Shown here piece by piece: positions 2,982-10,788 of a DNA stretch of 13,572 nucleotides (position 1 is the stretch's first letter; the number at the start of each line of letters is the position of its first letter). The position numbers were made by a program, and so were the translations under genes. Origin of the DNA: a virus. Below the pieces are notes generated by a model, which worked only from the letters and a program-made list of their open reading frames with translations, was not told the DNA's origin and searched no databases. The stretch lies in UHGV virus genome UHGV-1746862; one strand, written 5' to 3'.

Positions 2982-2990
2982 AAAATTTTG

Positions 2991-3085
2991 TTGACACTGG
3001 TTTTTAGATAGATTAAATTACACATCAACGGGGAGGGAATGACCTTCCCCACTAAGTAAAGTCCTTAAACTAGGAGATTCAAAAA
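2991..3085 (+). promoter_or_regulatory. Type B cassette
   Basis: TTGACA 2991-2996; TAAATT 3014-3019; stem GGGGAGGG 3030-3037 / CCTTCCCC 3043-3050; CTAGGAGATTCAAAAA then ATG at 3086. Confidence 0.6.
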
Positions 3086-3289: not shown

Positions 3290-3375
3290 AGTACTTTACA
3301 AGGGGCTTAAAAGTTGATAACTTAAGCCCCAGATAAAGAGCTTTACCACTAAATCCTAAACTGGAGATTCTAAAA
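3287..3375 (+). promoter_or_regulatory. Type A cassette (stem variant as in 811-900)
   Basis: TTTACA 3295-3300; stem-loop 3302-3330; CTGGAGATTCTAAAA then ATG at 3376. Confidence 0.55.
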
Positions 3376-3624: not shown

Positions 3625-3709
3625 AGCACTTTACAAGGGGCTTATAGTTCGATAAAGTAAGCCCCAGATAAAGAGCTTTACCACTAAATCCTAAACTGGA
3701 GATTCAAAA
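3622..3709 (+). promoter_or_regulatory. Type A cassette
   Basis: TTTACA 3630-3635; stem-loop 3637-3665; CTGGAGATTCAAAA then ATG at 3710. Confidence 0.55.
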
Positions 3710-4552: not shown

Positions 4553-4643
4553 ACAAGCCTGATAAAAATCTGTAAATTGTCAATCAACGGGGAGGGAATG
4601 ACCTTCCCCACTAAGTACAATCCTTAAACTAGGAGATTCAAAA
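4550..4643 (+). promoter_or_regulatory. Type B cassette
   Basis: TAGACA 4550-4555 overlaps stop TAG 4550-4552; TAAATT 4573-4578; stem 4589-4609; CTAGGAGATTCAAAA then ATG at 4644. Confidence 0.55.
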
Positions 4644-5739: not shown

Positions 5740-5806
5740 ATTGTCAATCAACGGGGAGGCGATAACCTCCCCACTAAATAAAACCCTTAAACTAGGAGAT
5801 TCAAAA
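5714..5806 (+). promoter_or_regulatory. Type B cassette, promoter embedded in the 3' end of the upstream gene
   Basis: TTGACG 5714-5719; TAAATT 5737-5742 overlaps stop TAA 5737-5739; stem GGGGAGG 5753-5759 / CCTCCCC 5766-5772; CTAGGAGATTCAAAA then ATG at 5807. Confidence 0.55.
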
Positions 5807-6055
5807 ATGGCAACTATCCGCGCTACTGTTAACGAGTTCGGTTTTTCCTCTCTGGATGTTAAATTTGACATTGCAGGCACTGATAACGCCTTTGAAATGG
5901 TGAAATGTCTTATCAGTCAGACCATCAAAGATTATAATCCTTCGGATGAGTTCTGGGAGGAAACAAAACAAGAAGTTCTCAAGGATGGTTATACTTATCA
6001 CTATTGGGGAGAAAAAATCGTCTCCCTGTACTACAACAAACAAGATTATAACTAA
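5807..6055 (+). CDS. Hypothetical protein (82 aa)
   Basis: ATG at 5807 with cassette RBS; the track's 5702 start is an in-frame extension running through the cassette and is rejected. Confidence 0.7.
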   Translation: MATIRATVNEFGFSSLDVKFDIAGTDNAFEMVKCLISQTIKDYNPSDEFWEETKQEVLKDGYTYHYWGEKIVSLYYNKQDYN

Positions 6056-6065
6056 TCGACGCAGC

Positions 6066-6117
6066 GGGGCTAAATAGCCCCAGATACCTGAACAGCCCCT
6101 TAAAATGGGGCTTTTTT
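6066..6117 (+). terminator. Two consecutive GC stem-loops, the second a canonical intrinsic terminator closing the rightward array
   Basis: GGGGCT-AAAT-AGCCCC 6066-6081; AGCCCC-TTAAAAT-GGGGCT 6094-6112 followed by TTTTT 6113-6117. Confidence 0.6.
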
Positions 6118-6560
6118 ACGTCTATGTAATAGCCTCTATTCAATCCTTTTCCTTTCCTTTCCAGAATCTATCCCACTGATTCAATAGAATCTTATCAGAC
6201 CTTAAAAGCAATAACTCTATAGTCTACTCTATAACCTCTTATCAAATCAACTTAAATAAAAGCCAATAACCCCAGAAAGGGGATGGCCCATTTAAACGCT
6301 CTATAAAGCTCTATAACAGCCTTATCAACCTAACTTAAGGGATTGCATTACCTCACCCTAAAAAGCCCTTTATAAAGCTTCCCAGAGACTTAAAAGAATC
6401 TTATAAGGGTGTAAGCTTTATCATCTCATTAGTATTCTTGTGAATATCTAAACAACCCCTTGATAGTCACTAAAAAGTATGTTATAGGGGCTTTAAAGTT
6501 ACTTTGAAGTAGCTTAAAAGTTACGTAAAAGAGGCTATAAAGTTACGTAAATGCTAGCCC

Positions 6561-6661
6561 CCTTAACATTCTCTTAACAATTTCTTAACAATCCCTACAT
6601 AGTTATGCTTTTAAGGCACTTGTTAGCAACTTGTTAGTCCCTTGTTAAATCTCTGTTAAGA
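6561..6661. repeat. Head-to-head sub-array: three CTTAACA sites, then four TGTTA(G/A) sites in the opposite orientation, each set at exact 11-bp spacing
   Basis: TAACA cores start at 6564, 6575, 6586; TGTTA cores start at 6621, 6632, 6643, 6654. Confidence 0.7.
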
Positions 6662-6863
6662 CCACGTAAAAGCCTTGTAAGAGTCTTTGACATAGCCTTA
6701 AAAGCTCCTGTAAAGCCCTATAAAGAGCTATCTGTACAGTTGGGGGATAGATACTAGGAAGAGACTTAAAAGAGCTTACAAAGAGCTATAGAGAGCTTTT
6801 AAGAGGGCTATTTAGAGAATCACTAAGAGAGAAAGGGAACGATAAGACCAGAGATAGTGACCA

Positions 6864-7140
6864 TGTTAATAGCTTGTTAAAAAGATTAAACACTTGTTAG
6901 AAACTTGTTAATTATCTTAACAAAATAACTCTTTAAAATTAACTTGTTAGCTCTTGTTAATCATCTGTTAAGACTCTGTAAAGACTATTCAGCACTTGTT
7001 AGAAAACTGTTACAGCCTTGTTAGTTCTGTTAAGAAACTGTTAAGACCTTTGAAGAGTTGTTAAGAAGGTGTTAGAACTGTTAAGAGATTGTTAAGGATA
7101 TTTTAAAATTTTGCAAAGTACTTGTAAGGGAGCTGTTAAG
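6864..7140 (+). repeat. Tandem array of about 17 TGTTA(A)G-family sites, mostly phased at 9-11 bp
   Basis: TGTTA cores start at 6864, 6875, 6895, 6906, 6945, 6955, 6966, 6997, 7008, 7019, 7028, 7039, 7059, 7070, 7079, 7090, 7134; one inverted copy (CTTAACA) at 6916-6922. Confidence 0.7.
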
Positions 7141-7429
7141 GGCTACCAAGCAGATATACATCCTAATCAGATATTTTTGAGTTCCTTCAAAGACCCTAAA
7201 AAATGACTTGACAGTCCTATTTTATAAAAATTTTAAGATTCTGAATAATTACCTATACAGCCTTTTAAAAATACAGGTAATAACAGGCTTATAAGATACC
7301 TTGTTAGTACCGTGTTAGACCTTGTGAGATAAGGCCTGTAAAGATATTCCTGTTAAGTTTATTAAAACAGTCTATATAGAGGCTTAGTAATACCTAGTGA
7401 ACACCTATAGAGAGTATCATAGCTGACAT

Positions 7430-7635
7430 AGAGATTAAGAGGTGTATAGGAGCTTCTAAGAAGGTGTAGAGGGATGGTTAAGGTGATTGTATAGGTTGTT
7501 AAGAAGGCTTGTTAGAGGGCTTGTTAGAAGGGTTATACAGAGGGGCTATTAAGACCACTAGATAGTTACTAAGATACTATATAGTACTATATAACTATAT
7601 AGAGAGTAAGATTAAGAAGGTTGTTAAGAAGGATA
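7430..7635 (+). repeat. Cluster of longer motif variants ((C)TTGTTA(A)GAAGG, AAGGTGTAGAGG)
   Basis: TTGTTAAGAAGG at 7496-7507 and 7621-7632; CTTGTTAGAGGG at 7508-7519; CTTGTTAGAAGGG at 7520-7532; related GGTGTATAGG / AAGGTGTAGAGGG at 7440-7473. Confidence 0.55.
7575..7602. repeat. TATA-rich palindromic cluster
   Basis: Perfect 12-bp palindrome TACTATATAGTA at 7575-7586; three CTATATA(G) copies at 7577, 7587 and 7595. Confidence 0.6.
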
Positions 7636-7690
7636 GATATTTTGTTCACATATGATGGTGACCCAGAGGTTGGGACAACCGATAAAATTT

Positions 7691-7723
7691 TATAAAAGTA
7701 AAAAGCCCCCAATTAAGGAGGCT
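7691..7723 (-). terminator. Putative intrinsic terminator closing the leftward gene cluster
   Basis: On the minus strand, AGCCUCC-UUAAUU-GGGGGCU (7 bp stem with one G-U pair) followed by UUUUACUUUUAUA, just past stop TAA 7735-7737. Confidence 0.55.
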
Positions 7724-7734
7724 CTTAAGATATT

Positions 7735-8358
7735 TTAAATCAGTGTTTCCAGAACTGTTTTTAATGATGACTTGGTTGTCTGATAAAAATGAGTAAATCC
7801 ATTATTGTTATCGAATATCTGCATCATAACAGCATCTCCCTTGATTGGGTACACTCGGATATCATAGTGAAAACCATTAAAGACACAAGAGCCATTACAG
7901 AATGCACTAAAGTCATCCACTGAGATATACTCTTCATGCCCTGTGATTTTTATACAAACACCTTTACTCGGTCTCTTAGGGTTGATATCTTCCATCACAG
8001 ACATACTCTGCCCACCAAGAGATACCATAGTGACCACTTTACGGTTCTTCTGTTTAAAGTACATCTTAACTTTCTGTAAAGTGTCTTCATAGAACGGGTA
8101 AGACCTTTCTACAAAGATTCCTTCAAGTGGCTCTTTACCATTTTCAACTTCTCTGTTATGCCGTACTGCAAAGATAATTTGTTCGAACCAGTCAAGATTT
8201 TCTTCGGAGAGTGCTTCTCGAACATCACTCCAGTCAAGTACTAGGTAGTTACCTTCAACTTCTTTTAAGTTATCTTTTTCCATAGATATCACACCATTAT
8301 CGTAAAACTTGATATTCTGGTACTGCGAATTTATTACTATTGTTCTTGATGAGGTCAT
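7735..8358 (-). CDS. Hypothetical protein (207 aa; possibly starts at the internal ATG 8283, giving 182 aa)
   Basis: Long ORF; the first 62 nt overlap the upstream gene in another frame; no clear SD before ATG 8358. Confidence 0.65.
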   Translation of the reverse strand: MTSSRTIVINSQYQNIKFYDNGVISMEKDNLKEVEGNYLVLDWSDVREALSEENLDWFEQIIFAVRHNREVENGKEPLEGIFVERSYPFYEDTLQKVKMYFKQKNRKVVTMVSLGGQSMSVMEDINPKRPSKGVCIKITGHEEYISVDDFSAFCNGSCVFNGFHYDIRVYPIKGDAVMMQIFDNNNGFTHFYQTTKSSLKTVLETLI

Positions 8359-10246: not shown

Positions 10247-10788
10247 TCTTTCACCATAGCGTTTCTGAACTGGCGTTGTGTTTCTCTTGTAATTTCGTTT
10301 GGAGTAAACCCTGCTTTTAGCATATCTCTGAAAAGAACTTCTAAATGGTTCCTCTCAATGATGTAAATAGCATTCTGAATAGCTGTTTTGCGCTCCTTCA
10401 GGTCACTACTAATCTCTTCGCACTTACTGGTAAGTTCTGTATCAACTTTCTTATAGACTGGCATAACATGTGCGTAGCAACCTTTATTAGTCTCCATGAA
10501 AAATTTAAAAGACTCTTCAGAGTCCTTTAGAGCAATCCCTATAAAGTTTTTGTAAGCACCTGTGAAAGATAAGGAATCAATCTCAGCAGTTGAGTATACA
10601 GTTCCTGCACACAGTCTTGCAGAAGTACTGAATGTGTGGTTTGGTGTTGTGTCAAAGTCTAAGTTCTTCAGTGGTCGGAAATAAACTGTACCATTGTGTG
10701 AGATGTGTGTTACAACAGCCTCAACACTCTTTGAAGGATTCTGTTTAACATACAAAATAATTTTATCGTGTTCTTTCACTTTAGCCAT
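10243..10788 (-). CDS. Hypothetical protein (181 aa)
   Basis: ORF with GGAGAG RBS upstream of ATG 10788. Confidence 0.7.
   Translation of the reverse strand: MAKVKEHDKIILYVKQNPSKSVEAVVTHISHNGTVYFRPLKNLDFDTTPNHTFSTSARLCAGTVYSTAEIDSLSFTGAYKNFIGIALKDSEESFKFFMETNKGCYAHVMPVYKKVDTELTSKCEEISSDLKERKTAIQNAIYIIERNHLEVLFRDMLKAGFTPNEITRETQRQFRNAMVKE

Follow-up and report, generated by a model that had tools for sequence, protein, structure and literature searches.

The 13,572-nucleotide stretch of UHGV virus genome UHGV-1746862 analyzed here (the window) contains a gene-free block of about 1.6 kb (6121-7690) filled with short, regularly spaced motif arrays. Comparison with related phages indicates that this block is almost certainly the concatemer junction, or virion-end locus, of a Felixounavirus phage, with positions 6557-7147 corresponding to its short direct terminal repeat (DTR). 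The window as a whole belongs to a Felix O1-like myovirus (Felixounavirus). In BLAST, the 1.68-kb gap between the flanking genes (6056-7734) matched 256-291 phage records, nearly all of them from Ounavirinae and with a top identity of 96%; the matching groups were Felixounavirus, Mooglevirus, Suspvirus, and, weakly, the Erwinia Kolesnikvirus group.

The evidence that carries this assignment lies in the boundaries. The left one, gcta/GCCCCCTTAACA (6556/6557, the slash marking the terminus), and the right one, TGTTAAGGGCTACC/aagcag (7147/7148), are the same as those of phages Pr103Blw, I14.1, and SeKF_63, whose records come from three laboratories and carry exact repeats at both ends (581, 581, and 613 bp, respectively). 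Seven GenBank records (MW481326, OR498728, PP892526, OR863361, MN994503, ON868915, and MN994498) start or end precisely at the base matching 6557, and one of these, MW481326 (Pr103Blw), has a 581-bp "short direct terminal repeat" annotated at both of its ends. Published work on relatives gives the same picture. The 581-bp DTR of Pr103Blw was called by PhageTerm (PMC8303462), as was the 613-bp DTR of Ro111lw (PMC6454146), and Bal31 digestion combined with run-off sequencing yielded a 608-bp terminal repeat for UAB_Phi87 (PMC4837284). Philippine isolates have been published as DTR phages (PMC11737134) and Kolesnikviruses as phages with short DTRs (PMC11984208), and the large terminases of relatives group with those of short-DTR phages (PMC4837284, PMC11984208); the large-terminase gene terL is not part of the window. 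In the original Felix O1 paper, the size of the genome was the sole ground for inferring "short terminal repeats," and the region was not discussed. Because the boundaries in the window are identical to those of relatives with determined termini, we take 6557-7147 to be the terminal repeat.

The window holds a single copy of the DTR because the sequence is in junction form, either collapsed or concatemeric. That the repeat is duplicated at both virion ends in this phage is suggested by the exact repeats in the records of its relatives, and homology likewise points to fixed, nonpermuted ends. The left end of the virion DNA would then consist of the DTR followed by 7148-7700 and the right end of 6113-6556 followed by the DTR, each providing about 1.1 kb of noncoding sequence. 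A preliminary description of this DNA, made from the sequence alone, had remarked that a noncoding block of 1.6 kb is unusual for a compact phage genome. That remark needs revision, as the block exists in one piece solely in collapsed or concatemeric DNA and would be split in the virion into the two terminal stretches just described; what looked like an odd gene-free block is explained as the physical ends of the genome.

Two database records call for comment in their own right. Positions 1-9 of PP079182.1 (Erwinia phage vEam_PM_6), at the homologous left end, read TTCCGATCT, by appearance an Illumina adapter remnant and thus a small record error, which lends incidental support to the following base as a true physical end. 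PP892526.1 (Escherichia phage vB_EcoM_I14.1) carries the taxonomy line Demerecviridae; Tequintavirus, yet its sequence belongs to a Felixounavirus and carries the 581-bp terminal repeat noted above, and the label is probably mistaken.

Phased motif arrays and their conservation

Motifs in 6121-7690 were counted against 1000 dinucleotide-preserving shuffles. TGTTA occurs 29 times (2.8 ± 1.6 expected; z = 16) and its extended form YTGTTAR 24 times (1.0 expected; z = 23), while CTNTAAAG and CTTAAAAG occur 7 and 5 times, respectively (0.5 and 0.2 expected; z = 9 and z = 12). The region holds 27 of the 37 forward TGTTAR copies of the window and has a marked strand bias for this motif (27 forward versus 4 reverse). 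The left flank and the central part of the DTR are occupied by a second motif family, represented by CTNTAAAG, and GC skew changes sign from negative to positive near 6600, coincident with the switch of motif family and orientation.

The spacing of the sites is as distinctive as their number. Consecutive TGTTA spacings are 9-12 bp in 16 of 28 cases, compared with a maximum of 2 in shuffles and 7 under random placement, and the Fourier power of base composition peaks at 10.4-11.3 bp (5.6, versus a maximum of 3.9 in 300 shuffles). The 21 forward sites within the DTR are phase-coherent at 10.40 bp over ~500 bp (Rayleigh R = 0.76; null 99.9th percentile, 0.65), and all 28 forward sites share a common phase at 10.45 bp over 1 kb, the local unit being 11 bp with 9s interspersed. 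Given this coherence across the DTR, the TGTTA sites lie on one helical face. The preliminary description had proposed just such a helically phased, motif-rich region, with a periodicity of ~10.5 bp, and our measurements bear it out: its consensus cTTGTTAAGaagg agrees with the ACTTGTTAAGAA obtained here for the TGTTA family, and the TGTTA starts that it listed (6997, 7008, 7019, 7028, 7039, 7059, 7070, 7079, and 7090) are exactly correct. It had also called the region free of open reading frames (ORFs), and the six-frame list indeed contains no ORF of ≥50 amino acids between 6144 and 7734. Annotation of the homologous gap in relatives is blank or consists of just 30- to 45-amino-acid calls and automated "repeat_region" features.

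We aligned 23 distinct sequences from three genera. In this alignment, the TGTTA cores are better conserved than the spacers between them (0.95 versus 0.86), and across 18 long loci, the mean identity is 0.81 in the left flank, 0.88 in the DTR, and 0.91 in the right flank, the best-conserved part of the region, compared with ~0.63 in the adjoining genes. Insertions and deletions (indels) among relatives are quantized. None measures 3-9 bp; 13 measure 10-12 bp, another 13 measure 20-24 bp, and 3 measure 32-33 bp, and among the longer ones, several (88, 99, 121, and 132 bp) are integral multiples of 11. Of the 48 indels of ≥9 bp, ~33 differ by no more than 1 bp from such a multiple. Indels in steps of 11 and 22 bp rule out hidden coding and show that change in the region proceeds mostly by whole units. 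A 24-bp insertion, ATGAGGTAGATTCTACCGAATCAA, found in some relatives at 7162, 15 bp rightward of the right terminus, belongs to the small number of indels whose length is not near a multiple of 11 bp.

Most of the 23 relatives retain phase coherence near 10.4 bp (best period, 10.2-10.55), with DTR lengths ranging from 567 to 638 bp; these 23 phase tests are not independent, the sequences being related. Judging from the alignment, the region is under purifying selection, with the motif cores and the cut-site blocks most constrained. The layout extends to Kolesnikvirus, where the left edge again has reverse units and the right edge a forward array, despite little alignable sequence. In Erwinia phage vEam_PM_6, only ~75-125 bp aligns, but GCCAC...TTAACA units follow the adapter remnant, a forward TGTTAAG array occupies the right edge of a 412-bp DTR, and the left flank carries a different unit, CTTCTAAG, at 11-bp spacing.

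Layout of the region and its gene context

The features of the region are collected in Table 1; several were delimited with Tandem Repeats Finder (TRF) or a position weight matrix (PWM). The left flank carries the CTTAAAAG, CTATAAAG, and CGTAAAAG family at 11- and 22-bp spacing, including an array at 6489-6551 (TRF, 22 bp × 2.9), and contains 0 or 1 copy of TGTTAR in all 23 relatives. The IHF consensus WATCAANNNNTTR has one match there, at 6453-6465 on the minus strand, ~100 bp to the left of the left terminus, which is not above chance for the window. Inside the DTR, the reverse units at the left edge begin 4 nt from the left terminus and number from 2 to 5 among relatives, varying in whole 11-bp steps. 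The central segment also holds AAGAGCTnnn arrays at 10-12 bp. In the main array, the local spacing is 9-11 bp, with ~20 bp at skipped units and gaps of 31-44 bp between clusters, and the mean phase is 10.3 bp (Rayleigh R = 0.85 at 10.30 bp; null 99.9th percentile, 0.71).

Table 1. Features in and around the terminal region (window coordinates; a slash marks a terminus)
Feature	Coordinates	Strand	Basis or remark
Intrinsic terminator, end of plus-strand early-type block	6094-6112	+	Terminator scan; rho-independent terminator annotated at homologous site in phage ASO1A
Left flank, noncoding; inside the right-end DTR copy in the virion	6113-6556	.	Motif positions
Homologue of short DTR, 591 bp	6557-7147		Left virion end 6557, right virion end 7147; boundary identity with relatives
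Three 11-bp units CTTAACAWTTT (TGTTAAG reversed)	6560-6594	-	TRF, 11 bp × 2.9; reverse-strand PWM matches
Four forward CTTGTTAR units, exact 11-bp spacing	6618-6662	+	Sites 6621, 6632, 6643, 6654
Central DTR segment, second family: CGTAAAAG, CTTGTAAG, CTTAAAAG, CTGTAAAG, CTATAAAG	6665-6830	+	
Main array, 17 forward TGTTA sites, reaching right terminus	6861-7140	+	
Invariant block TGTTAAGGGCTACC/AAGCAGATATACA across right terminus	7134-7160	.	23 of 23 aligned sequences, three genera
Right flank, noncoding; inside the left-end DTR in the virion	7148-7700	.	
Perfect 16-bp palindrome TATATAGTACTATATA	7578-7593	.	Unique in window; invariant in 23 relatives
Intrinsic terminator, end of minus-strand lysis/tail block	7701-7726	-	Terminator scan; annotated terminator in ASO1A and Moogle

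The block across the right terminus is invariant also in loci that were recovered by BLAST rather than by pattern search. Beyond it, the right flank contains an AT-rich stretch (7160-7290) with an invariant core (7217-7235), followed by groups of forward TGTTAR sites: TGTTAG units at 7297-7325, a 12-bp × 2.9 array at 7496-7531, and a last group at 7620-7633 (TTGTTAAGAAGG). The palindrome, ~430 bp inside the left genome end, looks like a candidate site for a dimeric DNA-binding protein. An inverted-repeat symmetry of the two cut sites was also considered. The sequence TAGCCC..TTAACA is common to them with a 2-nt indel, and a direct-repeat reading (GCTAgCC and GCTACC) fits equally well; the Erwinia boundaries do not decide between the two, and we claim no symmetry.

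The gap is enclosed by convergent gene blocks, a plus-strand block of small early-type genes that ends at 6055 on the left and a minus-strand block (lysin, tail protein, and others) that ends at 7735 on the right. Terminators facing inward on both sides shield the region from transcription, and both flanks are transcription ends, not starts.

Two observations concern these blocks themselves. The spacers separating the small plus-strand genes are copies of two types of ~85-bp cassette, type 1 at 814-900, 1414-1505, 2491-2561, 3290-3375, and 3625-3709 and type 2 at 2129-2217, 2982-3085, 4553-4643, and 5740-5806. Each consists of a G+C hairpin (e.g., GGGGCTTAAAAG..CTTAAGCCCC) and then a conserved leader that ends in CCTTAAACTAGGAGATTCAAAA with a ribosome-binding site. 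The type 1 cassette is the counterpart of the 57-bp repeats that the Felix O1 paper reported; in addition, it holds CTTAAAAG and ATAAAGAG, which resemble the second motif family of the terminal region. In the minus-strand block, the identity of relatives falls to ~0.1 across 10250-10750, versus 0.8-0.9 on either side, which suggests a swapped or mosaic gene module.

Possible roles of the arrays

The preliminary description had proposed that the arrays are a platform for cooperative protein binding, as in ParR-type centromeres, iteron origins, or terminase/packaging sites. The packaging option among these is favored because the region contains the virion ends, placed at 6557 and 7147 by boundary identity with relatives; the centromere and the iteron origin fare poorly, as detailed below, and protein binding itself is something that we infer. 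Taken as a whole, the observations are probably best explained by a DTR concatemer junction whose arrays serve as a packaging platform. For the narrower proposition that the arrays bind the terminase and position its cuts, the chances seem to us evenly balanced.

Under the packaging explanation, the TGTTAAG units, arranged on one helical face in reverse at the left edge of the DTR and forward through the rest of it and into the right flank, would serve as the sites at which the packaging nuclease (the large terminase and a recognition partner) binds and is assembled on replicated concatemers. Assembly on the arrays would set two cuts, gcta/GCCC (6556/6557) and GCTACC/aagc (7147/7148), and after cutting, the repeat would be duplicated as in T7-type packaging. 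A bolder version, which we put forward tentatively and consider rather less probable, is that the 10.4-bp phase lock of the TGTTAAG units and their reversal at the left edge make a one-faced, polar landing pad for a recognition subunit in a group that lacks a recognizable small terminase. In that case, the opposite side of the junction would be marked by the second family, in the left flank, and together the two families would set the cut places and the direction of packaging. If this were true, the measuring and duplication of short exact terminal repeats would become directly testable in a myovirus.

Several points weigh against the assignment or against the packaging role. The ends of this phage are placed by homology to its relatives rather than by its own reads, and among those relatives, the 608-bp run-off length for UAB_Phi87 differs by 6 bp from the length given by its genome sequence, in which boundaries of the type seen in the window lie 614 bp apart. 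The deposited right end of the Erwinia record is ~27 nt short of the homologous invariant block. No small terminase is recognizable in Felix O1 or UAB_Phi87 (PMC4837284), and nothing annotated in the window offers a binding protein. The arrays run >400 bp past each of the cut sites and draw on two motif families, whereas a simple signal for cutting would need less. Finally, replication slippage alone could yield quantized indels.

Among the alternatives, the one that survives best, although we consider it unlikely, is that the arrays are structural or end-handling DNA. They would form a phased, possibly curved, gene-free leader that occupies the portal and tail, is the first DNA into the cell, or buffers the genes against exonuclease, or they would bind an end-protection or ejection-control protein. 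The ~1.1 kb of gene-free DNA at each virion end suits this idea, as does the 10.4-bp phasing of A/T-rich units, which is the pattern expected for bent or one-faced DNA, and the most conserved part of the region is the right flank, beyond the cut site. Against this idea, the invariant blocks sit precisely on the cut sites, and motif orientation reverses at the left boundary. Nor do the ends have hairpins: single-strand folding of the boundary regions on both strands gave less structure than shuffles and no hairpin of the kind proposed for T7 right-end formation. No Chi site was found in the window.

An iteron-type replication origin, with repeated initiator-binding sites beside an AT-rich unwinding element, is quite improbable. 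Tandem direct repeats at 10-11 bp, about one helical turn, are shared with iteron origins and with ParR/parC-type centromeres, and the AT-rich stretch at 7160-7290 with its invariant core could be such an element, although it is not diagnostic alone. Against this, the neighborhood has no gene for an initiator or a helicase loader. Pfam found no domain in the ten flanking proteins, their PHROGs matches are all of unknown function, and none has a DNA-binding annotation; neither rep nor par genes occur among the genes of the window. The region contains no DnaA box, and its flanks end rather than begin transcription. Unlike the repeats of origins and centromeres, which have an adjacent initiator or partition gene, the arrays here are centered on the virion termini, which have been mapped experimentally in relatives.

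Replication slippage in noncoding terminal DNA, with the repeats as a by-product that has no sequence-specific function, would account for copy numbers in whole 11-bp units and for the quantized indels, but we regard this explanation as very improbable: the region is better conserved than the adjoining genes and the cores better than the spacers, the long-range 10.4-bp phase survives variable DTR lengths, and the layout is kept even in a genus where little of the sequence can be aligned. A plasmid-type partition centromere (ParR/ParB-like), a transcriptional decoy, or a noncoding RNA locus is scarcely credible, despite the resemblance of the 10- to 11-bp tandem units to parC-type centromeres, given that the genus consists of virulent myoviruses with no parA/parM-type operon in the window and no par genes in annotated relatives, that a sigma-70 promoter scan found 7 sites versus 5.8 expected (not above shuffles), that the sole Rfam match across 5900-7900 was a sub-threshold, chance match at a terminator, and that the 11- and 22-bp indels exclude hidden coding.

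The terminal-repeat assignment and the packaging explanation have practical consequences. They bear on how the genomes of Felix O1-like phages, in wide use for typing and biocontrol of Salmonella and E. coli, should be oriented and annotated, and they matter to phage engineering because insertions in the region may break packaging. They also offer mutable targets for the study of terminal-repeat recognition, namely, the left-end orientation switch, the invariant block at the cut site, the phase lock at 10.4 bp, the indels in steps of roughly one to three units, and the two motif families.

Comparison with known systems

The closest counterparts are the short DTRs already described in Felixounavirus and other Ounavirinae (UAB_Phi87, 608 bp; Ro111lw, 613 bp; and Pr103Blw, 581 bp), which occupy the same locus, with the same boundary sequences and the same convergent gene blocks. 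The locus is almost certainly the known Felixounavirus short DTR. Its internal architecture is another matter: the searchable literature on Felix O1-like phages deals with the length or existence of the DTR only, and we found no description there of the motif arrays, the orientation switch, the 10.4-bp phasing, or the quantized indels.

Several short sites about one helical turn apart beside a nuclease cut site are also found in the pacL and pacR boxes of SPP1 and in the R-sites of lambda cosB, which act with IHF. In those systems, a known small terminase is encoded beside the site, and the ends are permuted (pac) or cohesive (cos). Here, in contrast, each end carries an exact direct repeat, the arrays extend much further, and no small terminase is recognized in the family (PMC4837284) or, by Pfam or PHROGs, among the proteins of the window.

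The concatemer junction of T7, for which we read the ends of the T7 sequence directly, offers the most instructive parallel. Distant-mode BLAST gave no sign of homology to it, returning essentially only Ounavirinae and one record labeled Staphylococcus phage SA1, never T7. T7 is a podovirus whose exact terminal repeat, at 160 bp, is much shorter than the one described here, and its junction has a single motif family and no reverse units at the left edge, whereas here there are two families and reverse units. The T7 arrays were reportedly named SRL and SRR by Dunn and Studier in 1983, and their function is, to our knowledge, not firmly established. The spacing of the T7 units is 12-13 bp, compared with 11 bp locally and 10.4 bp on average in this phage. 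Yet both junctions are gene-free regions built around an exact terminal repeat, and in T7, 7- to 8-bp CCTAAAG and CATAAAG units in one orientation run through the 160-bp repeat and both of its flanks and resemble the CTTAAAAG and CTATAAAG units of the second family described here. The arrays in the window are in this respect T7-like, with units of 7-8 bp in one orientation, in and beside a terminal repeat, recurring about once per helical turn.

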